Virus record (IMG/VR): IMGVR_UViG_2541047681_000007
Reading direction: 5' to 3' (one strand)
DNA length: 47,714 bases
Source of the DNA: a virus
Taxonomy: Duplodnaviria; Heunggongvirae; Uroviricota; Caudoviricetes
In this document: one piece after another, positions 2,678-47,714 of the stretch
Numbering within the stretch: position 1 is the first letter of the stretch
How the letters are laid out: every line of letters begins with the position of its first letter
The notes under the pieces: model-generated
What the model was told of the DNA's origin: nothing
Seen by the model: only the letters and a program-made list of their open reading frames with translations
The model's database searches: none
Position numbers and translations under genes: made by a program

Positions 2678-3038
2678 AATTCCTCCAAGGGGTCTAATGG
2701 GTGAAACTTTATCACTCATTCAACCCAGAAGGAAATGTTTTATCTGGATATTTAAACAGTGACTACAACGTAATCTAGCACTGGTGATGCTTTGTTAGGC
2801 ATAGAGAATCATTCTATATACGACTAATGACAGAAAAACAGCAGACAAGTAGTTTGTTCATAAATTAACGCATACTATGTGTCTACGGTTTTCGAGACCG
2901 GTCCAATCATCAAACGAAACATAAAATTAGCTCACATTATGAGGAAAAGTATCTTTTTTGTACTATGTAAATTCAAAGGCTTAGCCTCATTTCTCCGATG
3001 GTTTTCTCAATACTACTGGTTGTGAGCCCTTGCAATGA

Positions 3039-3857
<819 letters not shown>

Positions 3858-3878
3858 GTCTTTAAGTGATAAGCATAA

Positions 3879-3925
3879 ACCGCAGCACGTCATGCATACG
3901 TCGTGTCTGCGGTTTTTCTTTTTTG
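3879..3925 (+). terminator. Rho-independent terminator after the GIY-YIG gene
   Basis: inverted repeat ACCGCAG...CTGCGGT followed by TTTTTCTTTTTT. Confidence 0.5.
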
Positions 3926-3926
3926 C

Positions 3927-4511
3927 TTACACGGTGTCTGGTTCTTCTGGCCACTCAATATCCGGTGCAGTTGTTGTATTAACACGGTTCAGCAACACCC
4001 GATATTTTTTCCAGGCTTCCAGCAATGAGGTTTCTTCCTCCGTTGCGATCTCCAGATCTACAGCATCCTGAAGTGGCGCTATATGCTCACTGGCTACCTG
4101 CATCAGGCTGTTTTTTGTTTCTTCCGCCTCCCGGATCCGGAACAGTTTTTCTGCTTCCGTATCCTTCACCCAGGCTGTGCCGTTCCACTTCTGATATTCC
4201 CCTTCCGGCGATAACCAGGTGACATTTTCCGGTAACGAGCCAAGTTCAGAAATAAATAACGCGTCGCCGGAAGCCACGTCATAGACGGTTTTTCCCCGAT
4301 GATCTTCAACGAGATGCCACGATGCCTCATCACTGTTGAAAACAGCCACAAAGCCAGCCGGAATATCTGGCGGTGCAATATCGGTACTGTTTGCTGGCAG
4401 ACCTGTATGAGGCGGAATATATGCGTCACCTTCACCAATAAATTCATTAGTTCCGGCCAGCAGATTATAAATTTTTATGGTCCGTGGTTGTTCACTCATT
4501 CTGAATGCCAT
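3927..4511 (-). CDS. tfa: Tail fiber assembly protein Tfa
   Basis: 194 aa, [51 protein letters not shown] typical lambdoid Tfa; start overlaps stf stop. Confidence 0.85.
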
Positions 4512-7500
4512 TATGCAAGCCTCACAATATAGTTAAATGCGATGTTTTTGACGGTGTTTTCCGCGTTACCAGCAGCGTTAACGGTGATGGTGTGTCCATG
4601 TGAACCAATCGCAACGGAGTGCGTGTGTGCACCAATACCGACAGTATGTGCGTGTGCACCTGCAGATGCTGCTGTGCCGGACAGTGAGTGGCTATGGTTA
4701 CCATCTGTACTGGTATTAGCTAACGCCCCCGTAGACATACCTACTGAGCCTTGTACACCCCAGGTATTTTGACCTGAGCTTGTATAACCATATTGATAAG
4801 TATCTTTAAAAACACTGGGGTTAAATCGACGGCCATCTCTATGGCTGTGATTACCAGCTGCATTCGTGCTGCCACTTAAACTATGGGTATGCGCACCAGT
4901 GTTATTCGTGGATTTAGTGCCGTAATCAAACGACGATGTGGTTTTCGTCCCCAAATCAGTACTGGATGCGCTGGCGCTGTGGGTATGCGATTTTATGCCG
5001 TCCTGTTCCTGAGACAATACGGCACGACCACTGGCGGGCTTGCCCTTAATCGTCCAGCCACGCATATCAGGGATCACGCCTGACGGATAAGCGGCTGCAA
5101 GTTTCGGGTAGGCAGATTTGTCAAAAGTCTGCCCCTGCATCAGGGCATAACCAGACGGAACGGTATCTGATGGCCACGGGATTGGTGCGCCGACTGGGTA
5201 GCTTTCTGGTGGAAGATTTTTCGAGGTATAAACTTCTGCCCAGTCTTCCTCAAAACCATAACCGTCTCTTGAAGAACGGTAGAACAGACCACCATTTCTG
5301 TAATGCGCCTTCATCTGCAAGGTCCGGCAACTTCCGACTCCGGTATAGAAGTTAACCAGAATATAGCTGTCGCCAGAGCGGGTGACATTATAAGCGCCTG
5401 ATTCGGCATTCCAGGGAACGCCACCATCCGCATCGGCATATGTATCCGTTGCCCTTCTGGCAAAAGCAGCCACATGCGCGGCGGTTAAAGTAATATCTTT
5501 GGAACCATCAAACTCAACACCAGAAACCCGTCTTGGCGTTTGCAGCTTTGTTGCTGTTAATGCATTACCGTTCAGACTTGCGGACAGTTTGGTTCCAATA
5601 ACCAGTTCGCCGGTTGCGTTATCAATAGCAAACGGTCTTAATGTATTCCAGCCACCATAAACATCACCTTGATTGGTAAGCAGCAGGTAAGTTTTAGCGC
5701 CATCATTACGCCATAATGCCCCATACTCCCCACCTATCATTCGAATCTGATTACCACCACGCGCTACAATTTCGTCTGTGGCAAAAAGTTTTTTGCACGA
5801 CAAGTTATCGTTAACGATTAACGAATGAGACTCATAAAAACCACGCCCACTCTTAAAATCAAGGATAACGTCCGCCGCGATACATTCAGTCGCCGGATTT
5901 GTTGCCCCAAACTTATAGGTCGTATCATTAACAACGAGATCAGCACCAGGTGCGGATATTGACAGGCCATCTTCGATAAACGCAAAAACAGGGAAAGCTG
6001 CGCCATCAACATAGAACACAGAGCGCAAATCATCGCCCTTATTACTCATCATTATTGAGTGGATGGCTCGTTCATTGTTTTGATATTGCCAGAACATGCC
6101 ATAAGCATAACGCCCCCTGTCAGTCCAGCCGCCAGGCATAACAAATCCGTTAAACTCGCAGTTATTCATCGGATCGCCTGCGGTTCGCGTTGCCGTGGTG
6201 ATAATGACCCTTGATGCCAGTTCGCTTACTGAGCCAGCAGAACGCATAACAACAACAGGGTAATATTTTCCAGATGTTGCACCTGCAGGAGCGTTAACCC
6301 GCACATAACGCATACCACGCTTATCAGCAAAGTCTGTTTTACTGACCGCGTTAATGTTGTTCAGGAAGCGTCCCTTATCGGGTATATCAGCGCCGTTCTG
6401 GTCTTTCTGCAGACGTTTCTCTGCATTGTCATAGGCTGATTTTACTGCCTTTGGCGTTGCCGCCAGCGTTTCAGACGTACTGTTGGTCGCACTGCTTAGC
6501 TGAACTATCCCTTTCTGTGCTGTCGTTGCATCCTGTGCGGTGTATTTCCCGTTAGCCAGGTCATACGCGGCCTTAACGGCTTTTGGTGTTGCCGCCAGTG
6601 ACTCGGAAGTGCTGTTAGTCGCACTACTGAGCTGTACTATCCCCTTTTTCGTCGTGCTCGCATCCTCAAGCGCCACGGCGGATGCAATATCCTCTGCCCG
6701 TTTTGCCGCTGTCTCAGCGCGCGTTGCCGCGGATTCCGCCGTACTTTTGCTCTGTGCTGCCGCCGTCGCACTGCCAGCTGCCTCTGTCGCCTTCGTGGAT
6801 GCTGTCGTGGCGCTGCCCTTCGCTGCTGACGCCTGTCTGGTCGCCTCATCTTTTGAAGCAGACGCCGATGATGCCGATGACGCCGCCGAACTGGCTGACG
6901 ATGCGGCAGCCGTTTTTGAGGATTCTGCACGGGTTTCCGACGCTTTTGCGTTCGTTTCGGATGTCTTCGCTGCGGAAGCAGACCTCGCTGCTGCCGTGGC
7001 CTGCTCAGTGGCTTCGCCAGCCTTCGTTGTGGCTGTTGAAGCAGACGATGCGGCACTTTCTGCCGACTTTCCGGCAGCGGTGGCACTGGCTGAGGCCTGC
7101 CCGGCACTTGTTGACGCGGCGCTGGCAGATGATGCAGCCGCTGTTTTTGAGCCTGCCGCAGCCGAGGCGCTCTGTCCCGCTGCCGTTTCAGAAGACCTGG
7201 CGTTCGTCTCGGACGTTTTTGCCGCCTTCGCGGAATTTCCTGCCGCCGTTGCCGAGGAAGCGGCACTACTGGCGCTTGATGATGCGTTCGTTTCTGATGA
7301 TTTCGCTGCCTCTTTTGAGGCCGCCGCATCCCGGGCTGAGGTGGCAGCTTCTGACGCTTTCGTGGTCGCGGTGGATGCAGAAGTGGCTGCAGATTTTTGT
7401 GACGCTGCAGCATTCGTTTCTGACGTTTTCGCCGCACCGGCACTGGTAGCCGCCGCGCTTTTTGAGGACTCTGCAGCGGCAGCACTTTTTGATGCTTCAG

Positions 7501-8041
7501 TAGCCTTTGTTGATGCCGTTCCTGCGCTGGAAGACGCTGACTGAGCCGACGACGCGGCCTGTCCGGCTGACGTGCTGGCTGCGCGTGCTGAGCCTGCAGC
7601 ATCAGTCGCATGGGTTGCCGCCTCACGGGCTGATGTGCTGGCATCGCTGGCTGACTTCTTCGCGGCTGCCGTGTTCTGTGCCACGGCGGACGCGTTACGC
7701 GCCACCTCTTCCACCATCAGTTCAAAACGGCGCAGTGCCTCAGGACGGGCATCATCCTCCGTCATGGCACCGAGAAAATCATTCAGCGTACCGGGTCGGG
7801 AATCTTCATACACGGTGATGGTCCCGGCATGTGACGGCGGGAATCCTTCCACCAACAGAATAACGCTGTACTGACCGTACTCAACGTCCATGCTGTAACG
7901 CCCGGCCTCATCCGGATTTTCTGAGGCCAGCGTGTTCACCACCACCGTGGTGCTGTTACGTTTTGCTTTCAGCTGGATTGTGCAGTTCTGTACCGGTTTT
8001 CCTGTGCCGTCTTTCAGTACACCTGAAATCTTTACTGCCAT
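4511..8041 (-). CDS. stf: Side tail fiber protein Stf (long form)
   Basis: N-terminus [26 protein letters not shown] and C-terminus [31 protein letters not shown] match lambda Stf; long Ala/Ser/Thr-rich repeat region; ORF track starts 2 codons earlier at 8047. Confidence 0.85.
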
Positions 8042-8052
8042 ATTCACCCCAC

Positions 8053-8078
8053 AAAAAAGCCCGCCTGAAACGGCGGGC
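8053..8078 (-). terminator. Putative intrinsic terminator downstream of lom
   Basis: hairpin GCCCGCC-loop-GGCGGGC followed by a T-run on the minus strand. Confidence 0.4.
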
Positions 8079-8105
8079 TGTCATAACACTGTGTTACCTG
8101 GCTAA

Positions 8106-8705
8106 TCAGAACTTATAACCGACACCCACGATGAAACCGTCAGTGCGCCAGTCGCCACTGCCGGAACCTTCATAAGCGACATCAATGGCCACGGACTCGG
8201 TCGGGTTAAACTGCACGCCAGCTCCCCACGCCAGAGACGTGTTGCTGTGGCGACCGTCATCACTTCCGGTCAGCACATCGTGCGTTTTCCCCTTGTTGTC
8301 AGTTACGCGGATATAATCTCCGGAGAAAGTCGAAACACGGCTGTAAGCCATACCCGCCATCGCATACGCGCTGAACCATTCATTCACGCGCACAGACGGC
8401 CCCGCCATCACGCTGAACCAGCGGTTACGCACGGAATCCTCATGCCAGCGGGTATCGCTGTAATGCGTTTTTTGCTCATCTTCAGCGTTGGCATAACTGA
8501 ATGACGTAATCAGCCCCAGCGTGTCCGTAAACTCATAACGGTATTTCACGTTAATCCCGTTCAGATTATCGCTGCCGGGAGCGTTCGTACGGGCATGAAG
8601 ATACCCTGCGCTCAGTGTGGCCGGCTGCTCAGACGCCCATGCAGGCGCACCGGATACGGCCAGACAGATGGCTGCGGACAAAATGGCTACACAAACTTTA
8701 CGCAT
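8106..8705 (-). CDS. lom: Outer membrane protein Lom (Ail/Lom family)
   Basis: 199 aa with signal peptide MRKVCVAILSAAICLAVSGAPAWA and C-terminal ...GFIVGVGYKF, near identical in pattern to lambda Lom. Confidence 0.85.
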   Translation of the reverse strand: MRKVCVAILSAAICLAVSGAPAWASEQPATLSAGYLHARTNAPGSDNLNGINVKYRYEFTDTLGLITSFSYANAEDEQKTHYSDTRWHEDSVRNRWFSVMAGPSVRVNEWFSAYAMAGMAYSRVSTFSGDYIRVTDNKGKTHDVLTGSDDGRHSNTSLAWGAGVQFNPTESVAIDVAYEGSGSGDWRTDGFIVGVGYKF

Positions 8706-8726
8706 AATTACCTCTCGCTTTTCTGC

Positions 8727-8753
8727 AATAAAAAAGGCGCCATTTCTGGCGCC
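8727..8753 (-). terminator. Putative intrinsic terminator downstream of J
   Basis: GGCGCCA-loop-TGGCGCC hairpin followed by a U-run on the minus strand. Confidence 0.4.
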
Positions 8754-8772
8754 CGTATATGGGTTATAAAAT

Positions 8773-11700
8773 TCAGCTGATACTGATGCCTGCGGTGGCT
8801 TTCTTCATCACCACAACCAGCAAATCGCTGATACTTGCTGTGGGATACCAGTCATTTACCAGCCATGATGACACCGAAAACTCCAGCGTCATATGGCCGC
8901 GACCAGCTGGCATATCAATAACACCACTGTAAATCAGCGTATTATCCAGCGCGGTACGGTTATAAATTTCAGCACCGTTTTTCCGTACTATCAGGCGGCA
9001 TGACGAATAAATATCGTTATTCTCCCGCTCATGTTTAGCGCCGCTGAATGCCACCGCCGGAATAACAATCTGCCGGTCAAACGGCTGATCGTCATAAACC
9101 CTGACGGTGATGGTCCCTGATGGCCACCGTTCCGGTGCACGGGAGTCCCGGGGGAAAGCTTTGCCCACTGTTTTAACGAGATCGCCTTCAATCTGGTTGG
9201 CGGACAGTTTTCCCAGAACCCGACAGTTCTCGTTAATCGTGACGTTGTTGAGCGTCCCGGAGTTCGCATTCACGTTACCGCTGATATCGGCATTTTTCGC
9301 CGTCAGCCGCCCGTCCGGTGTCAGGGAAAATACCGGAGGATTACCGCCGCTGGTAATGGTGGGAGCCGTCAGGCGTTTCAGGAACACTTCGTTCATGAAT
9401 ATCTGATCGCCCTGCCCAACAAACATCGGCTTTGTGTTGCCATTCGCAGGATTAATCATCGCAATCCTGTCTGCCGCCAGCAGCACCTGACTCTGCATGC
9501 CGTCAGGGGTGTTCTCAATACCGGCACCAATACCCGCGATATAAAGGCGTCCGTCCTGCATCTGCTGCAGCTTCACAGCCCACATGCTGTTCAGGTTATT
9601 ATTTGTATCAACCTGAACCTTCTGTATCTGCTGAATCGCTGCACTCTGGTCTTCCAGTTTCTTATTGACGGTCTGCGTGATTTCATTGCTGACATCCGTA
9701 ATGGACGTCCTGATTTCAGCCAGGTCAGGCGCAAGCTGACCGTTATCAATCTGCGTCCACAGCTCCTGAGCCAGGTGTGTTTTCCCTATCTCTCCTTTGA
9801 AAAAATCCAGATAGCCGGATGCATCATCACTCGGCTGACCAACAGCCTCCACGAATGTCGATTTGCCAACGGTATTCACACTGCGAACGTAAAAATAATA
9901 ATCATGGCCCGGCCTGATATTGATACTGGCGGCTATCCAGTACAGCGCCGTACCAAGATAACGCGCGCTGGTTTCAACCTGCCTGATATCCGCAATCCGC
10001 GTTTCCGAGAACCAGAACTCAAACTGTACCGTCGGATCATAAACCGCAAGATGCGGCGTGGCGGTTATCTGAAAATAGCCCGGCGTCAGCTCAATCTGTG
10101 ACGGCGCTGCCGGTGCGGCAATCCGGAACGATACCGATGCCGGATCGCCCTGCTGCCCCCACGCATTTACTGCCCGGACTGTCAGCCTGTAGTTTCCTGG
10201 CGCCAGTTGTGTGAAGCGGTATGTGGTTTCCGTCGTCCGGGCCGTGCTGACCAGCCGCTCACTGCCGTCGTCCGCTGTTACGGTCAGACGGAGCAGGAAG
10301 CTCACGCCCTTCACCACCTTCGGAGTGTCCCATCGCGCCAGCACCTGATATTCCCCGCTGTCTGCAGTGACTTCGGCGGTCAGGTGCTGCACCGCTGGCG
10401 GCGTGACACCGTTCACCGTGCCACTCTGTTCGCCGTCAAAGTGCGCCCCGTTATCCACGATGGCCTCTTTTTCCGGTACATGCTGCACGGCGGTGATGGC
10501 ATACGTGCCGTCGTCGTTCTCACGGATACTCACGCAGCGGAACAGGCGCTGGCGCAACGTCGGCAGCTTCAGCCCCCATACGCTGTATTCAGCAACGCCG
10601 TCAGGAACACGGCTCACTTTCACCTTCACGCCGTCGGTGACGGACTGAACCTCCACGCTGACCGGACTCCCCTGCCCGTCAACCAGGCTTATCAGCGTGG
10701 TGCCGGAAGATGGCAGCGTGATTTCACGGTCGAGCGTCAGCGTCCGGGTCTGGCTGTTTACCGCCAGCACGCGCCCGCCGGTGCGGATACCGGCATAGTC
10801 ATCATCGCAGATTTCAATGACATCGCCCGGTACATGGCGAAGCCCTTCGGCACCCACGCTGAAGTCCACGGTCTGCGTTTCCAGCAGTTCTGTTTTAATC
10901 AGCCACAGCCCGGCGCGGTGTGCCTGCCCCCGGCTGGTACAGCCAAAGGCATCCATCTTCGTGACATTACGACCGTAACGGGCAATGGCCTGCGTATCTT
11001 CAACAAGCTCTGTCGCCGTCTCCCAGCCGTTGTTCGGGTCAATCCAGTTCACCTCAACGGCATTATGGCGGTCCTTCAGGGCGCTGAAGCTGTAGCGGAA
11101 CGGCGCGCCATCATCCGGCATCACCACATTACTGCGGTTATAGGTCCACACCTTATCTGATGGCCGGTCCTGCACGAACGTCAGCGTCTGCCCGTTCCAT
11201 ACCGGCATACAGCGCATCGCCGAGCAGAAATCACTGAGCACATCCCACGCCTTACGCTGTGTGGTCAGCCAGGCATTACAGGTGATGCGCGGCTCCGTGC
11301 CACCAAATCCATCCGGCACCGACTGGTCGCAATTCTGGCCGATGACATACAGCGCCCATTTATCCACATCCGCTGCACCAAGACGTTTCCCCATGCCGTA
11401 ACGCGGGTGGGTCAGCATATCCCACAGACACCAGGCCATGTTGTTGCTGTATGCCGGTTTTAACGTTCCGTCCCAGATACCGCTGTATTGCCGCGTCTGC
11501 GGGTTATAGTTCGACGGCACCTGCAGAATGCGCCCGCGAAGATGATAATTACGGCTCACCTGCTGGCTGCCGAACTGCTCCGAATCCACCTGCACGCCGA
11601 CCAGTGCCGTGTTCGGGTAGCACTGTTTCACATCGATGATTTCGGTGTATGACGACCAGAGCGTTTTGTTCTGCAGCTGGTCTGTGGTGCTGTCCGGCGT

Positions 11701-32898: not shown

Positions 32899-33816
32899 AT
32901 GGTATCATATTTTATTAAGCCATATCTAAACGACCATATTTATCATTTTAAAGATACTTTTGCGTACGCGTTAGTAAAATCGTATAATTCTTCATTTGTT
33001 ATTTACAAATGGAGAATTAATGTGGCAGCAAACGTTGAATTTGATTTCCCAAATTACTTTGAAGTGGATGAAGAAAAGTTAAGAAGAATTCATTCCATTA
33101 TTAAAAAGAGGCTTCCAGAAAAAAACAAAGAAACTATAGAATTCATTATCAAAAAATCCGATAATTTTATCTACCACACTAAAAACATTATTGATATAAT
33201 TAATGAACCAAATGACTCCACTTCAAAAATAAACAGCATAAAAATTAATTATAATTCAGAAAATATGGATGTTGCTGTATTGCTAAGTAATAAAACAGGT
33301 GCGTCAATAAATGTATCAGGAGAAAATCGTGATGATGTTTTTCTTCTGTCATCCGAGTTGAAGGAATATATATCAAAAGAAGTCGCAAATATAACAAAAA
33401 TGAAATGGATGCAAGCAAGAACTATTTCATCAATAATTATGCTGCTTCTTGTTGGATATATAACGTATATATTTTCGGATATAAAAATAATAGATGCAAA
33501 TGCCCTCAAAGTAGCACTTGAAAGTACAAACCCCAATGACAAGCTTAACTTTTTGATAAGCAAGGGAAATAAAGACATTAAAACAGCAACAACTATAGTA
33601 CCTATGTTTATATTATTACTAGCAGTAATTGCTGGTCAAATCATACCTTTTGAAAAAATCATGAACTATATCTACCCAAGAAACATATTCCTTTTCGGTA
33701 AAGAAATATCTCTCATTGAACGCAAGAAGAGAAATAGAAGTAATATATTTTGGGTGATTATTGTTGGTAGCATCATATCACTTTTAGTTGCATTTATCAG
33801 CACAAGATACATGTAA
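32899..33816 (+). CDS. Hypothetical membrane protein, AT-rich moron (three predicted C-terminal TM helices)
   Basis: 305 aa ORF of low GC content on the strand opposite to late transcription; TM segments ISSIIMLLLVGYITYIF, TIVPMFILLLAVIAGQIIPF, IFWVIIVGSIISLLVAFIS; followed by hairpin terminator. Confidence 0.55.
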   Translation: MVSYFIKPYLNDHIYHFKDTFAYALVKSYNSSFVIYKWRINVAANVEFDFPNYFEVDEEKLRRIHSIIKKRLPEKNKETIEFIIKKSDNFIYHTKNIIDIINEPNDSTSKINSIKINYNSENMDVAVLLSNKTGASINVSGENRDDVFLLSSELKEYISKEVANITKMKWMQARTISSIIMLLLVGYITYIFSDIKIIDANALKVALESTNPNDKLNFLISKGNKDIKTATTIVPMFILLLAVIAGQIIPFEKIMNYIYPRNIFLFGKEISLIERKKRNRSNIFWVIIVGSIISLLVAFISTRYM

Positions 33817-42593: not shown

Positions 42594-42701
42594 AAATCAG
42601 CACGTACGAATTCAAACTCTGCCATAAAAGAACATATAAGTAATTTATTAACATATAGATATAGGTTATATTACAAATTGAAAAATTATTGGAGAGCAAC
42701 A

Positions 42702-43568
42702 ATGAATCAAAATCCATTCTCATTCTATGACTTTCTTGGATATTTAATACCAGGTGGTTTTTTTATCCTATTAATGTATTTCTGTGGTTTGACATTCGAT
42801 CTAGATATTGTTATTGACTTAACTGAATTGCTCAGAGGTCAAAGTCAAATCTTTGGCATTTTGAACTACGCTTCAATAGTTATTATATCTTATATAGCTG
42901 GACATTTTATTTCTATCACGTCAGCATTTTTTATCGAAAAATACATGAATAAAGAATTAGGATATCCTTCCAAATATCTATTTAAAAAATTGATAGATAT
43001 CTCAGAAAGCATTTGTAGCCCATCATGCGATGAGAGAAGCGCTGATAAAAAAACAAAAATAAAGAATCGCATAATCAAATGCGTATTATGTCCGATAATA
43101 CTATGGGATTTTGCAACACAAAAACTATGTTATTCTCAATCTCTACCATTTCATTTAGCTAATACAACATGGTTAATGATCAAAGAAGGTTATGAGAAAA
43201 AGTTCATAACAAATCGCCAATTATTACAAGATAAAAACGGACTTGATGATGATCTCTTCAGATTGGCATATCATTATGTTTATGAGTTTTCAAAACAACA
43301 TCAAACAAAAATTCAAAACTATGTTGCATTATATGGTTTTTGCAGAAACATATGTTTAATCTTTATAATTTCATTTTGGGTATCAGTTCCAACCTTTATT
43401 TATCGGTTATGTACTCATAGTGATTATCTTTATAGTTTACTTTCAATAATGCTTAGCTTTTTCTTCGTCTATGTTTTCTATGTTGGTTTTGTTAAATTTT
43501 ATAGAAGATATACTTTAGAAGTATTAATGGCATTTGCTGTACTTCAAAGTAACGACACTATTCGTTAA
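42702..43568 (+). CDS. Hypothetical polytopic membrane protein, AT-rich moron
   Basis: 288 aa from ATG preceded by GGAGAG; multiple hydrophobic helices (LGYLIPGGFFILLMYFCGL, IFGILNYASIVIISYIAGHFISI, ICLIFIISFWVSVPTFIY, LLSIMLSFFFVYVFYVGFV); low GC; ORF track starts at 42678. Confidence 0.55.
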   Translation: MNQNPFSFYDFLGYLIPGGFFILLMYFCGLTFDLDIVIDLTELLRGQSQIFGILNYASIVIISYIAGHFISITSAFFIEKYMNKELGYPSKYLFKKLIDISESICSPSCDERSADKKTKIKNRIIKCVLCPIILWDFATQKLCYSQSLPFHLANTTWLMIKEGYEKKFITNRQLLQDKNGLDDDLFRLAYHYVYEFSKQHQTKIQNYVALYGFCRNICLIFIISFWVSVPTFIYRLCTHSDYLYSLLSIMLSFFFVYVFYVGFVKFYRRYTLEVLMAFAVLQSNDTIR

Positions 43569-43609: not shown

Positions 43610-43816
43610 ATGCTGAACCTCGATTGTGTTCCTATCTCAACTTATTGCAAAGAAACTGGCGAAACTCCTGAAGCAATAAACAAACGTGTACAGCGCGGTG
43701 TTTGGCGTGAAGGTGTTCAGGTTTTAAAGGTTGAAGGCGTTAAGGAGAGGTGGATTGATCTTAGTGAGGTTGCAAAATGGGCCAGACAAAACTGCTCAAA
43801 CTACCGCGCGGCGTAA
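43610..43816 (+). CDS. xis: Excisionase-like DNA-binding protein (Xis/AlpA-type)
   Basis: small basic protein immediately upstream of and overlapping int; GGAG 6 nt upstream of ATG at 43610; ORF track starts at 43571. Confidence 0.5.
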   Translation: MLNLDCVPISTYCKETGETPEAINKRVQRGVWREGVQVLKVEGVKERWIDLSEVAKWARQNCSNYRAA

Positions 43817-44943
43817 CAATCAGGAAACACCGCCAGGGAGAAACGATCAATATAACTTTCACCTACAAAGGAGTTAGATGTCGTGAGCCGCTTTCCAATC
43901 TGGAAGTAACACCAAAGAACATTAAATACGCCGAGCGTACACTCGGCGAAATCCATAATAAGATCGAAAGGGGAACATTCATTTATGCAGAATATTTTCC
44001 CCGTTCTGCTCGTTTAAAAATTTTTGGTAATGCTGCTGCAGGCAAAACGGTAAAGATGTACCTGGACGAATATCTTGAAATCTGCGAAACAAGAAAACTT
44101 TCACCCTCTACGATTGGTGGCTATAAAAAATGCCGTAGTGCGTTAGCCTCACTTCACATTTGCCCTGCAAGTGAATTAACACCAGCAACCCTGAAAGCGT
44201 GGATTCAAAGCCAGAAAACAACCTTAAAAACCATTCGCAACCAGTTATCTTTCCTGCGGTCAGCACTTGATGAAGCCGTGACCGATGGGGTACTTCAAAT
44301 TAACCCCGTATCGTTAGTAACAGCTTCGCGCTACCAAAGTGATAAGTCAGAAGCAGAAAGCAGCTATGTGGTTGATCCGCTATCACCAGCAGAAGTTGAT
44401 GCATTACTAGCAGCAGCCGGAAACAAACAATGGGAAAATCTGTTCCGGTTCGCCATACATACAGGCCTGCGTAGTTCTGAATTATGTGCCCTACGATGGC
44501 ATGATATCGACTTTGTTGGAAAAACAGCCCATGTTCAGAGCGCAAGTGTTGTCGGAGTTATCAAAGGAACAAAGACAAAAGCCGGTACCCGTAAAGTTGA
44601 ACTGACTGAAGAAGCAATGTTGGCGTTGATAAACCAGAAGCCATTTACATTCATGAAGGATGCTACTGTCTTTGAAGATCCAAAGACCAATAAACCCTGG
44701 GCAAGTGCTGATGCAATTAGGAAAAAAGCATGGGTGCCAACATTGCGAAAAGCAGGTATTCGTTACAGAAACCCATATCAAACCAGGCATACATTCGCCA
44801 CCAGCCATATCAGCCGGGGAGCAAACCTGTTTTGGCTTGCAGCTCAAATGGGGCATAAAGGGCCTGAGATGCTTTTCAGGCACTATGGCTCATATCTGAA
44901 GGAATATGATGGACAAACAAGCTTGAAGAAGATAACAATATAA
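43777..44943 (+). CDS. int: Tyrosine integrase (phage integrase family)
   Basis: 388 aa; catalytic-region motifs RHTFATSH and LFRHYGSY (R...HxxR...Y), N-terminal arm-binding-like domain. Confidence 0.85.
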   Translation: MGQTKLLKLPRGVTIRKHRQGETINITFTYKGVRCREPLSNLEVTPKNIKYAERTLGEIHNKIERGTFIYAEYFPRSARLKIFGNAAAGKTVKMYLDEYLEICETRKLSPSTIGGYKKCRSALASLHICPASELTPATLKAWIQSQKTTLKTIRNQLSFLRSALDEAVTDGVLQINPVSLVTASRYQSDKSEAESSYVVDPLSPAEVDALLAAAGNKQWENLFRFAIHTGLRSSELCALRWHDIDFVGKTAHVQSASVVGVIKGTKTKAGTRKVELTEEAMLALINQKPFTFMKDATVFEDPKTNKPWASADAIRKKAWVPTLRKAGIRYRNPYQTRHTFATSHISRGANLFWLAAQMGHKGPEMLFRHYGSYLKEYDGQTSLKKITI

Positions 44944-44959
44944 TCCAAGCATGAAACTA

Positions 44960-44985
44960 TTGGCCACAATTTGTGGCCATTTTAC
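44960..44985 (+). terminator. Hairpin terminator downstream of int
   Basis: TTGGCCACAA-T-TTGTGGCCA perfect inverted repeat followed by TTTTAC. Confidence 0.5.
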
Positions 44986-45001
44986 GGAGCAAGATAGAAA
45001 C

Positions 45002-46735
45002 ATGGCAAATCAAATTACCAAACTAAAAAATATAAATGTTGTGAAGTTTCGCGGACTGAAAAATATAAACATCGAGTTTGGTTCTCGCCTAACTGTTATT
45101 TGTGGTAAAAATGGCACATCTAAATCCACAATTCTTGGCATTATCGCCCAAATATTTAGCTTTACAAAGGACTTTACCAAAAACCCTGAGACTGATTTAA
45201 CACAATATAAAACATTAACAAATGGCAGCTTCAAGTCAGCTTTCAGCGAACATTTTAGGCTTTCAGAACAATTTGATGTTCCTGGTTCAATGGACGTCAA
45301 AATTAGTGTCTATGATGGTGCATCGAACAAACATCTTGAAAAACTAACATTAGGTTTATACAGCTACAGTGACAGAGATAAATCAAGGCCTGTAGTCAGG
45401 GGAAATGATTCAATACCGGAAAAAAACCAAAGTAGAAACGTTACTCATCCTGTTATTTTTTTAAGCTTAGCACGACTTCTTCCTATTACATTAAGGACTG
45501 ATTACTCAACACGGGATGTTCAGTACATCAATGAAAATTCTGATGAAATCAGAATGATGAGTAACCAACTCTTACTAAAAAACAATGGAAGCTCAGTAAC
45601 AGCAACAAAAGGTACTATCGATTCAATGGTTGTCCATGGTGACAATTATGATCACCAATCAGTATCTGTTGGTGAAGATAATGTTGGACAATTAATCCAA
45701 GCAATTTTTTCATTTAAAAGATTGAAGGAAACTTATTCTGATTATCATGGCGGAATATTGTTAATTGATGAAGCCGATGCAGGTCTTTTCCCTGCTGCAC
45801 AGTTAGAGCTAATTAATATTCTAACTAAAGCAGCAAAACAATACGATCTGCAAATAATCATGACCTCGCACTCTCCATTAATAATAGAGGATATCTATAA
45901 TCGTTCAAAACAAGATAGTGATAGCTTTAAAACAATATATCTTACAGACACATATGGAGATATTAAAACAAAGAATAATCTTTCATGGACAGATATCCAC
46001 GCTGATTTACATGTTGAAACTGTAAAAATTAATGATGACATTTGTCTTCCAAAGGCAAATGTATATTTTGAAGACAAAGAAGGTTTCGACTTTTTCAAAC
46101 AATTGATAACAGATCGAAAAATAAATAAAATATTAAATCCATTAGGGAATATAAATATTAGCTGCTCTGCCATGCTTGACTTAATGGCAAGAAAAATACC
46201 AGAATTTACAGCTAAAAGCTTGATCGTCTTAGACGGTGATGTTGTTCACGACAATAGTGCTAATGCAAAAAAAGCCAAAAAAGAAAAAAACTTATGTTTG
46301 CTTCCAAGCACCTTACCTCCAGACCAAATGATTTTTGAGTTTTTATATAATTTACCACCTGATGATGCATATTGGGAAAATAAAAATAAATTTACAAAAG
46401 CTGTTTTTATGAAAACAGCTAAAGACATAATTGCAACGCTAAAGATTGGTAACGCTCCGATTGATTTAAAAATCCTTATAGATAATTATAAAAAAGTTAA
46501 CAAAAACCATGGCGGGATAGTTAGAAAACTGTTTAAAGATTTTGCACATACGACTCAATTTCAGGCCCAAGTAAAAGGGCGAGTTAAAGATAACCCATAT
46601 CGATATTGGGTCGAGAAAAATCCTGTGCAATCGGATAGCTTCAAGAATGAACTAATAAAGAGTCTTAAAGTTATTATGACAAGTGGACATGGTGTCGATT
46701 CTGCTACCATCTCATCATATCTGTCAGATAACTAA
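45002..46735 (+). CDS. OLD-family nuclease-like protein (N-terminal ABC-type ATPase, C-terminal TOPRIM-like domain)
   Basis: Walker A CGKNGTSKST, Walker B ILLIDEADAGLFP, H-loop-like TSHSP; C-terminal region with EG-x-D (FEDKEGFD) and DxD (LIVLDGDVV) TOPRIM-like motifs; 577 aa from ATG 45002 (MANQITKL...), comparable to P2 Old; ORF track starts at 44951 inside the int terminator. Confidence 0.6.
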   Translation: MANQITKLKNINVVKFRGLKNINIEFGSRLTVICGKNGTSKSTILGIIAQIFSFTKDFTKNPETDLTQYKTLTNGSFKSAFSEHFRLSEQFDVPGSMDVKISVYDGASNKHLEKLTLGLYSYSDRDKSRPVVRGNDSIPEKNQSRNVTHPVIFLSLARLLPITLRTDYSTRDVQYINENSDEIRMMSNQLLLKNNGSSVTATKGTIDSMVVHGDNYDHQSVSVGEDNVGQLIQAIFSFKRLKETYSDYHGGILLIDEADAGLFPAAQLELINILTKAAKQYDLQIIMTSHSPLIIEDIYNRSKQDSDSFKTIYLTDTYGDIKTKNNLSWTDIHADLHVETVKINDDICLPKANVYFEDKEGFDFFKQLITDRKINKILNPLGNINISCSAMLDLMARKIPEFTAKSLIVLDGDVVHDNSANAKKAKKEKNLCLLPSTLPPDQMIFEFLYNLPPDDAYWENKNKFTKAVFMKTAKDIIATLKIGNAPIDLKILIDNYKKVNKNHGGIVRKLFKDFAHTTQFQAQVKGRVKDNPYRYWVEKNPVQSDSFKNELIKSLKVIMTSGHGVDSATISSYLSDN

Positions 46736-46743
46736 TTGATTAA

Positions 46744-46781
46744 AAAGGGCTTTATGTGATGGCCACAAAGCCCTTTTTTTG
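46744..46781 (+). terminator. Hairpin terminator between OLD-like gene and methyltransferase gene
   Basis: AAGGGCTTT...AAAGCCCTT inverted repeat followed by TTTTTTT. Confidence 0.5.
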
Positions 46782-46814
46782 ATATACTTTAGATCTGACA
46801 TTTAGAGGTATCAT

Positions 46815-47714
46815 ATGCGTTTTAACACCCCACTTCGCTATCCTGGCGGTAAAGGCAAGCTTGCAAATTTCATGCTTCGGCTTATTGAAGAAAATAATCT
46901 TTCGCCTATACATTATGCCGAACCATATGCTGGGGGTGCTGGTTTAGCATTGAAACTGTTACATCTAAATGCAGCTGAAAAAATCATCCTTAATGATATT
47001 AATATTTCTGTTTATGCTTTTTGGCACAGTGTATTAAATCATGCAGATCAATTATGTTCTTTAATTGAAAGAACTGAAGTTACAATGGATGAATGGTTTA
47101 GGCAGAAAGATATAATTAATAATCCTAAAGACCATGATCTTTTAACAATTGGTTTCTCAACCTTTTTTCTCAATAGAACAAATCGCTCTGGAATATTAAA
47201 AGGTGGAGTAATTGGCGGTAAAAATCAAGAAGGGAAATGGAAGCTTGACGCTCGCTATAATAAGAGTGATTTGATTTCTCGAATCCATAAAATATCAGAA
47301 AATCGTCACAGAATAGATTTATATAACATGGATGCAATTGATTTCATTAAAAAAATAGTTATTCAATTGCCACAAAACTCATTAACATATTTGGATCCAC
47401 CTTATTACATAAAAGGTAAAGGTTTATATATCAACCATTATAATCATGATGATCATGTTAGGGTTGCAAAAGTCGTACAGAATAATATTAAAACACCTTG
47501 GATTGTTTCTTACGATAACACTCCTGAGATCCAAGCTATGTATAAGACATCATCATTAGTATATGGAATAAACTACAGTGCTCAAGATCGGTACAAAGGA
47601 TCTGAGGTAATGTTCTTCAGTGAACGATTGAAAATCTTTAAAACAGATGATCCAACTAAGGTAAAAGCGCCTGTATTTAAAAGAGGATGTGTTGACGACC
47701 ACATCCAGACATAA
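46815..47714 (+). CDS. Dam-like DNA N6-adenine methyltransferase (D12 class)
   Basis: N-terminal YPGGKGKL and EPYAGGAGLAL (AdoMet binding), FFLNRTNRSG, catalytic DPPYY; stop codon is the last three bases of the window. Confidence 0.75.
   Translation: MRFNTPLRYPGGKGKLANFMLRLIEENNLSPIHYAEPYAGGAGLALKLLHLNAAEKIILNDINISVYAFWHSVLNHADQLCSLIERTEVTMDEWFRQKDIINNPKDHDLLTIGFSTFFLNRTNRSGILKGGVIGGKNQEGKWKLDARYNKSDLISRIHKISENRHRIDLYNMDAIDFIKKIVIQLPQNSLTYLDPPYYIKGKGLYINHYNHDDHVRVAKVVQNNIKTPWIVSYDNTPEIQAMYKTSSLVYGINYSAQDRYKGSEVMFFSERLKIFKTDDPTKVKAPVFKRGCVDDHIQT

Follow-up and report, generated by a model that had tools for sequence, protein, structure and literature searches.

The final 2.7 kb of IMG/VR record IMGVR_UViG_2541047681_000007, a 47,714-nt stretch of caudoviral DNA that we refer to in its entirety as the window, is filled by two genes on the plus strand lying directly 3′ of a prophage integrase. 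The first (45002–46735) encodes an ABC-type ATPase with a TOPRIM-like C-terminal domain and a helical subdomain, as assigned from Pfam, Foldseek and PHROG matches and an AlphaFold2 (AF2) model. The second (46815–47714) encodes an α-class D12 N6-adenine methyltransferase of the PD-Lambda-5_B family, as assigned from PADLOC, Pfam and its motifs. We found that the two genes are one unit, and we lean toward the view that they constitute a methylation-gated, restriction-modification (RM)-like defense cassette carried by a temperate phage, with the ATPase protein as the proposed nuclease effector. An earlier interpretation made from the letters alone (the sequence-only reading) had raised an RM-like or self-protection arrangement, and we retain this idea as the best reading of the locus.

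The ATPase open reading frame (ORF) extends from 44951 to 46735, and an in-frame ATG at 44951 would make the protein 594 aa long. We placed the start at 45002, giving 577 aa, because the N-terminus MANxITKLK is conserved in the family and RefSeq annotates identical loci in this way. After a gap of 79 bp, the methylase ORF is complete at 299 aa, its stop codon being the final three bases of the window; the coordinates and sizes reported previously for both genes were correct, with the spacer given as 80 bp. The upstream gene is the tyrosine integrase of the prophage (43777–44943, +), which matches Pfam Arm-DNA-bind_2 (E 1e-23) and Phage_integrase (E 3e-16), is annotated in RefSeq as a site-specific integrase in identical loci, and ends 58 bp upstream of the ATPase start. 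The ATPase and methylase genes each have a GC content of 33%, compared with 44% for the integrase and 51% for the rest of the window, and the pair therefore looks like a single foreign cassette. The block of integrase, ATPase and methylase genes was present at 98–99.5% identity in 85 of 5,426 complete E. coli genomes. This methylase allele (at least 95% identity) was also found in 85, and no complete E. coli genome was seen to have only one of the two genes. With the block repeated in E. coli and the gene pair recurring across phyla, the pattern is far beyond chance.

Evidence that the genes belong together comes from a scan, with one genome per species, of 80 loci encoding relatives of the ATPase (42–88% identity) in Gamma- and Betaproteobacteria, Geobacter, Bacteroidota, Mycobacterium, Listeria and Acidobacteria. 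A methylase gene is present in 78 of these, and the remaining two are contigs ending just after the ATPase gene, such that all 78 informative loci encode both proteins. The methylase gene is immediately downstream on the same strand in 73 loci, at a distance of 41–172 bp and mostly of 41–45 bp. The pairwise distance matrices of the two proteins are correlated as well (Mantel r 0.785, with none of 2000 permutations as high). The previous claim that the ATPase is genuinely paired with a Dam-like methylase is thus upheld by the linkage in 78 of 80 loci. Partial matches were obtained in Symbiopectobacterium (L006:6001-8327) and Listeria rocourtiae (L085:6001-8163), in which the ATPase is aligned to approximately residue 414–433 and the methylase to approximately residue 162–179; these may represent joint decay of both genes or matches split by frameshifts.

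The mobile elements that carry the pair, and the positions it occupies within them, are varied. The E. coli prophage has the cassette between the integrase and the prophage end, in keeping with the integrase-proximal cargo slot described in the sequence-only reading, and an e14-like prophage at icd has a diverged allele (47% and 56% identity) in its equivalent slot, oriented the opposite way. Another E. coli strain has the cassette among the transfer genes of an integrative conjugative element (ICE), and in P. aeruginosa prophages (L089-L091:8001-10679) the pair is immediately downstream of an S24-peptidase cI-like repressor, a lysogenic-conversion slot distinct from the integrase-proximal one of E. 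coli. Such slots are typical for genes expressed from a resident mobile element. The cassette is also found inside the 44.9-kb genome of Citrobacter phage phiNP (OR565852.1). The phiNP methylase (L086:7814-8680, OR565852.1 ~43926-44792), 89% identical in amino acid sequence to that of the window, is downstream of an annotated “AAA family ATPase” and has no coding sequence in the record. A tblastn search of 50,697 phage records with the ATPase protein retrieved only phiNP, one Vibrio phage and three Streptococcus phages. Homology to gp29/gp30 of mycobacteriophage MichelleMyBell, considered as a prophage pair of ATPase and methylase, was dropped after no match to them was found among these records.

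It had been suggested that the methylase might serve genes, or a conventional restriction enzyme, beyond the end of the window. We rejected this, as the next gene in identical loci is the integrase of another element, 270–310 bp after the methylase gene. We found no recognizable restriction endonuclease (PD-(D/E)xK, HNH, GIY-YIG or PLD) beside the methylase, and its sole neighbor in the window is the ATPase protein.

The Dam-like adenine methyltransferase recognized in the sequence-only reading proved to be a D12-family enzyme. The protein has the motifs YPGGK, EPYAGGAG (46920–46943) and DPPYY (47394–47408) and matches Pfam D12 MethyltransfD12 (E 2e-19) and PADLOC MTase_II (E 3.7e-107), and its score of 54 bits against NCBIfam dam is under the 114.85-bit cut-off. 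Its match to the PADLOC hidden Markov model (HMM) PD-Lambda-5_B (PDLC04018; E 5.1e-124, 411 bits) aligns residues 1–282 to positions 1–283 of 291, and by this profile comparison we assign it to the Component B family of PD-λ-5. A further phage N6-adenine (Dam-like) methyltransferase is encoded in the window at 31645–32490 on the minus strand.

PD-λ-5 is an experimentally validated, broad anti-phage system of two genes that was recovered from E. coli ECOR7 by functional selection for phage resistance, and it could be cloned only in a host lacking mrr (Vassallo et al. 2022, Nat Microbiol, PMC9519451), an observation implying activity of its methylase. As a reference we used L005, an E. coli P2-hotspot locus whose gene lengths, 2,460-bp span and HMM scores match the published system. 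Its A protein matches at E 7e-168 and its B protein at E 7.9e-122, with 404 bits compared with 411 for the methylase of the window, which is 51–52% identical to it. The two cassettes are alike in having methylases of the same HMM family with similarly high scores, in their order of effector gene and then methylase gene, and in being prophage cargo. They differ in the effector, which in PD-λ-5 is a ParB/HEPN protein of approximately 500 aa and here is an unrelated 577-aa ABC ATPase with a TOPRIM-like domain. PD-λ-5 proper was rejected because the Component A gene is absent from the window: PD-Lambda-5_A was not among the best 25 PADLOC matches of the ATPase protein, and tblastn with PD-λ-5A found nothing in the window. 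The same model gave E-values of 4e-74 to 7e-168 in the positive controls L004, L005, L007, L014, L039 and L083. Calling of PD-λ-5 presumably depends on the ParB/HEPN gene, and tools that need both PD-λ-5 genes would then be expected to miss a locus such as this one.

Four loci from four lineages have all three genes, namely the ATPase gene, a PD-Lambda-5_A homologue (E 1e-97 to 1e-164) and one methylase gene, in four different orders: L007 in Edaphovirga (3231–7689), L014 in Kushneria (6001–10559), L039 in Mycolicibacter (2996–7671) and L083 in Sterolibacterium (5986–10028). The methylase gene is displaced from the ATPase gene in these loci because it is adjoined by the third gene, and the methylase of the Edaphovirga locus is 73% identical to the PD-λ-5-type methylase of L005. 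The ATPase protein and the ParB/HEPN protein are therefore alternative, and sometimes joint, partners of one methylase clade, which suggests that in the three-gene loci a single methylase serves two unrelated effectors.

The ATPase motifs assigned previously to the N-terminus of the 577-aa protein were confirmed. Pfam AAA_15 and AAA_21 match at residues 1–300 only. The Walker A/P-loop GKNGTSKST (aa 35–43; 45104–45130, +) has G35, K36, N37, G38, T39, K41 and S42 invariant in 45 homologues, and invariant columns were also observed in the signature-like SVGEDNVGQ (aa 222–230) and the Walker B/D-loop LLIDEADAGL (aa 253–262), which together span 45665–45787 (+). The H-loop SHSP (aa 289–292) is invariant across the family. 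The region from the signature to Walker B aligns to PtuA, retron ATPases and P2 Old, and the nearest solved sequence relatives are PtuA, retron ATPases and Thermus OLD, with alignment restricted to the ATPase motifs. Within the ATPase head, a β-rich insert (approximately residues 55–215) is rich in invariant Arg, His and Asn and is a candidate DNA- or partner-binding surface. In PHROGs the protein belongs to phrog_3940, annotated as “unknown function.” Gabija, PARIS, Septu, retron effectors, MADS and Menshen were each considered and rejected as assignments for the ATPase protein, as their matches were generic ATPase-motif matches alone. The GajA and AriA models, for example, match at the ATPase motifs only (E ~1e-17), and the partners expected for Gabija or PARIS (a GajB UvrD-like helicase or a separate AriB TOPRIM protein) are absent beside the pair in the window and in L001, L002, L003, L087 and L089–L091.

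The C-terminal half probably contains a TOPRIM-type nuclease domain. We built an AF2 model of the full-length protein on 45 homologues (predicted local distance difference test score, pLDDT, 86.6) and a separate model of residues 340–577 (pLDDT 94.2; predicted template modeling score, pTM, 0.90). The modeled domain has the topology β-α-β-α-β-α-β, with strands at model residues 13–17, 39–42, 67–71 and 92–94. In NVYFEDKEGFD (46058–46090, +), E357 and D358 are invariant in 32 diverse C-terminal domains, and E357 (model residue 18) is positioned right after strand 1. D411 and D413 of IVLDGDV (46223–46243, +) are likewise invariant columns, and this DxD (model residues 72 and 74) is positioned right after strand 3. 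In the model, this placement of the Glu and the DxD fits the TOPRIM arrangement. The helical subdomain that follows the TOPRIM-like core has the invariant residues R508, F511, K512 and F514.

A validated counterpart of this architecture is HEC-04, a single-protein ABC ATPase-TOPRIM defense system in which E319, D375 and D377, as well as the Walker A lysine, are essential (Payne et al., bioRxiv 10.1101/2024.01.29.577857). In both families an ABC ATPase is fused to a C-terminal domain, of TOPRIM type in HEC-04 and TOPRIM-like here, and the alignment of family members to the HEC-04 HMM takes in Walker B, the E and the DxD. HEC-04 is the top PADLOC match of the E. coli L003 homologue (E 3.4e-22), for which residues 252–441 align to positions 233–405 of 494 in one stretch from Walker B to beyond the DxD. 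With isolated C-terminal domains, the HMM matched three of the six members tested (E 1.5e-5, 2.4e-4 and 0.027) at model positions 313–406. Under a near-linear mapping, the Glu and DxD of the family would fall on, or within two positions of, E319 and D375/D377 of HEC-04. Similarity of the window protein to HEC-04 is modest, by contrast, and is limited to the ATPase part (E 3.8e-16, with a best stretch of residues 8–53 only). The proteins also differ in that HEC-04 has approximately 494 aa, acts alone and is found embedded in Hma loci, whereas the family described here has approximately 575 aa, a β-rich insert in the ATPase head that differs from that of HEC-04 and an additional C-terminal helical subdomain, and is almost without exception beside a D12 methylase gene rather than standing alone. 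The pattern of profile matches points to a related family and not to the same one. A phmmer search of 1.84 billion representatives with the C-terminal domain gave 193 matches, including a sister group of ABC ATPases of approximately 500 aa (P0296, P0306, P0307, P0315, P0318, P0325, P0345, P0353, P0372 and P0388) that share only the TOPRIM-like core (query residues 12–132, 30–44% identity). The sister group has no Pfam TOPRIM match and no PADLOC match at E 1e-30 or better, a threshold that is maybe too strict for HEC-04.

The sequence-only reading had placed the protein in the OLD family on the strength of its ATPase and TOPRIM-like motifs. The ABC ATPase, the α/β domain and the invariant E and DxD all stood, whereas membership of the OLD family was not supported. 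The general architecture is shared with P2 Old, the class 2 Burkholderia and Xanthomonas OLD proteins, GajA and the retron Eco8 OLD protein, in each of which an ABC ATPase is joined to a C-terminal metal-binding α/β nuclease-type domain with a helical appendage; P2 Old is, in addition, prophage cargo. The structure comparison that had been proposed gave a mixed outcome. Foldseek with the whole model ranked Thermus OLD (6p74) and GajA (8sm3) first, over 569–660 aligned columns, but with the C-terminal domain alone the matches were weak: the C-terminal region of Xanthomonas OLD (6njw) came first without significance (E 0.38, TM 0.34–0.38), and 6nk8, 6p74 and 6njv were likewise listed, with Burkholderia and Thermus OLD in the top 12 (E 0.38–0.7). 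Pfam OLD-like_TOPRIM (PF20469), which is carried by every full-length P2 Old homologue listed, was found in none of 45 full-length members (E up to 5) and none of 32 C-terminal domains (E up to 10); no Pfam family matched the C-terminal domain of the ATPase protein. In a profile-profile comparison with the P2 Old family alignment only the ATPase halves align, hhalign against the P2 Old C-terminus found nothing even with an enlarged profile of Neff 5.1 (probability 0.3%, E 0.2), and a search of PDB sequences with the C-terminal profile returned nothing relevant. Because of the weak fold matches, the lack of PF20469 and the lack of a C-terminal profile match, we do not file the protein under the OLD family.

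The sequence between the two genes bears on whether they are expressed together. The hairpin terminator postulated there was confirmed as a terminator-like structure at 46742–46780 (+), AAAAAGGGCTTT...AAAGCCCTTTTTTT followed by seven T/U in the manner of an intrinsic terminator (RNA fold dG -17.2 kcal/mol, z -3.6; equalled by 1 of 200 shuffles). A simple scan did not pick it up because its loop is 13 nt long. The cassette of phiNP and two ICE-borne variants, L002 and L008, have equivalent hairpins between the ATPase and methylase genes. A consensus scan also found a promoter-like site, TGGCCA-17-TATACT with a TG extended -10 (46760–46788, +), which overlaps the 3′ arm of the hairpin. It is a pattern match only, and such sites are no commoner in this region than in shuffled sequence; it is possibly a separate promoter for the methylase gene. 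Between the integrase stop and the ATPase start is a perfect palindrome, TGGCCACAA-T-TTGTGGCCA (44961–44979; RNA fold dG -13.6 kcal/mol, z -1.95), which may be a terminator hairpin of the integrase gene or an operator. The 9-mer TGGCCACAA is found four times in the window (0.75 expected), and three of these copies are at the cassette; its recurrence at 46760–46768 covers part of the loop and of the 3′ arm of the hairpin between the genes. TGGCCA is approximately 3-fold above background density in the ATPase-methylase spacers, yet it is present in only 7 of 73 loci. These repeated motifs could serve as an operator, a -35 element or a methylation target.

In the methylation-gated defense that we favor, the D12 adenine methyltransferase would mark the DNA of the lysogen and its prophage, and the ABC-ATPase/TOPRIM-like protein would be an effector nuclease that attacks incoming unmethylated DNA. 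ATP binding or hydrolysis in the ABC head would control a metal-dependent TOPRIM-type center formed by E357/D358 and D411/D413. The methylase would supply target recognition, with the effector docking on it as Res docks on Mod in Type III RM systems. We propose the methylase as the recognition platform because the effector has no recognizable sequence-reading domain and because the methylase clade is common to two unrelated effectors. The comparison with Type III systems is a functional analogy only, in that a methylase gene adjoins one for a nuclease subunit that uses ATP and lacks an obvious specificity domain; there is no homology. Res is a superfamily 2 helicase fused to a PD-(D/E)xK nuclease, and the β-class methylase Mod has a target-recognition domain of its own, whereas the present cassette combines an ABC-type ATPase, a proposed TOPRIM-like nuclease and an α-class Dam-like methylase.

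Several points weigh against this reading. Nuclease activity, methylation sensitivity, a physical complex and an anti-phage phenotype are all properties that we infer. The TOPRIM identity comes without any significant match in Foldseek, Pfam, PDB sequences or the comparison with P2 Old, and the C-terminus of the window protein itself gives no match to HEC-04. The hairpin and possible promoter between the genes would permit independent expression. Vassallo et al. term PD-λ-5 “RM+Abi” and not plain RM (PMC9519451). Finally, HEC-04 and OLD-type proteins defend without a methylase, and the effector could therefore be an abortive-infection sensor.

The best surviving alternative takes up this last point, and we regard it as rather unlikely. 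The effector would be an OLD-, HEC-04- or PARIS-style sensor that fires indiscriminately upon phage interference, with the methylase as the guarded component or the brake; inhibition of the methylase by a phage anti-restriction protein, or a lapse in methylation, would be examples of a trigger. Among ABC ATPase-TOPRIM proteins, those studied to date (OLD, PARIS, Gabija and HEC-04) are described as responding to phage factors, HEC-04 is toxic on induction, and the description of PD-λ-5 as a compacted “RM+Abi” system, as well as the effector's lack of a recognizable domain for reading DNA sequence, would be in line with such a guard. However, a sensor of phage proteins needs no methylase, yet a methylase accompanies the ATPase in every informative locus. 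Furthermore, PD-λ-5A and the ATPase protein are unrelated yet share the same methylase clade, which fits a reliance of both on the methyl mark or on a platform provided by the methylase.

We consider it less probable again that the pair is chiefly an addiction module, stabilizing its mobile element by post-segregational killing with the nuclease as toxin and the methylase as antidote, and with defense incidental. Classical Type II RM systems are known to act as addiction modules. Each occurrence of the pair is on a mobile element (prophage, phage genome or ICE), the two genes are tightly linked, and the nuclease gene was not seen by itself in any genome. Such a role is compatible with defense, however, and the homologous PD-λ-5 was recovered by selection for phage resistance. 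The slots occupied (beside cI, beside int/att and, for PD-λ-5, the P2 old/tin hotspot) are typical of anti-phage cargo. Lastly, the idea of two independent co-travelling functions, an OLD-like exclusion nuclease acting by itself and a Dam-like orphan methylase of the phage that shields phage DNA from host restriction or regulates phage genes, would accommodate the hairpin and promoter-like site between the genes and the frequency of orphan Dam-like methylases in temperate phages (the second one in the window included), but it is very improbable and largely refuted by the synteny data, given that adjacency is kept in Proteobacteria, Bacteroidota, Actinobacteria, Firmicutes and Acidobacteria, that the usual gap of 41–45 bp leaves scant room for a terminator and a separate promoter, that the protein divergences are correlated and that rearranged loci keep the methylase gene within 2–5 kb.

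Elsewhere in the window, two further ORFs have the appearance of cargo. Between a yfdR-like gene and the excisionase gene, 42678–43568 (+) encodes a predicted multi-pass membrane protein of 296 aa with a GC content of 36–39%; it belongs to phrog_12528, annotated as “unknown function” (E 3e-173), has no Pfam match and matches PADLOC Csx27 weakly (E 9e-6). This slot is a second variable cargo position, as the otherwise identical prophages L001 and L087 have two small ORFs there. In the lowest-GC kilobase of the window (29.5%), a 305-aa ORF (32899–33816, +) that has hydrophobic C-terminal segments and no PHROG match adjoins the minus-strand N6-adenine methyltransferase gene and is probably further phage cargo.

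The sequence-only reading did not recognize the arrangement as a described system, and this holds in part: the methylase belongs to the B family of the validated PD-λ-5, but its pairing with this ATPase appears undescribed. PADLOC v2 has no model for the ATPase protein or for its combination with the methylase. We found no description of the pair in the searchable literature, a scope that does not include the 2020 ABC ATPase classification of the Aravind group (NAR), which may mention methylase-linked ABC-TOPRIM systems. Both components have known relatives (PD-λ-5 B on one side, HEC-04 or OLD-like proteins on the other), and what appears to be new is their pairing. Catalogues of defense systems would probably miss the cassette, although 85 of 5,426 complete E. 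coli genomes have it and although it spans Proteobacteria to Listeria and mycobacteria and rides both prophages and conjugative elements. The methylase will alter the methylome of the lysogen and may expose lysogen DNA to Mrr-type enzymes, as with PD-λ-5.

If the effector is methylation-gated, the cassette would link OLD/HEC-04-type ATPase-TOPRIM nucleases with restriction-modification, two areas that have been treated separately, and would serve as a simple model, with only two genes, of how nucleases of this kind are prevented from attacking self DNA. The three-gene loci bear on the modular evolution of defense by effector swapping. We tentatively suggest, as an idea with somewhat less than an even chance of being correct, that the PD-λ-5-type methylase is a hub that licenses interchangeable, unrelated effectors, of which this cassette is the commonest form, and that the ATPase protein, as an ABC ATPase-TOPRIM protein of OLD/HEC-04-like type that distinguishes self from non-self by methylation, represents a new class of ATP-dependent restriction enzyme. 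If so, this would be the first case of discrimination by a methyl mark in a nuclease type that has so far been known solely for sensing phage proteins and triggering abortive infection, and the three-gene loci would be natural composites of RM and a second effector on one methylase.

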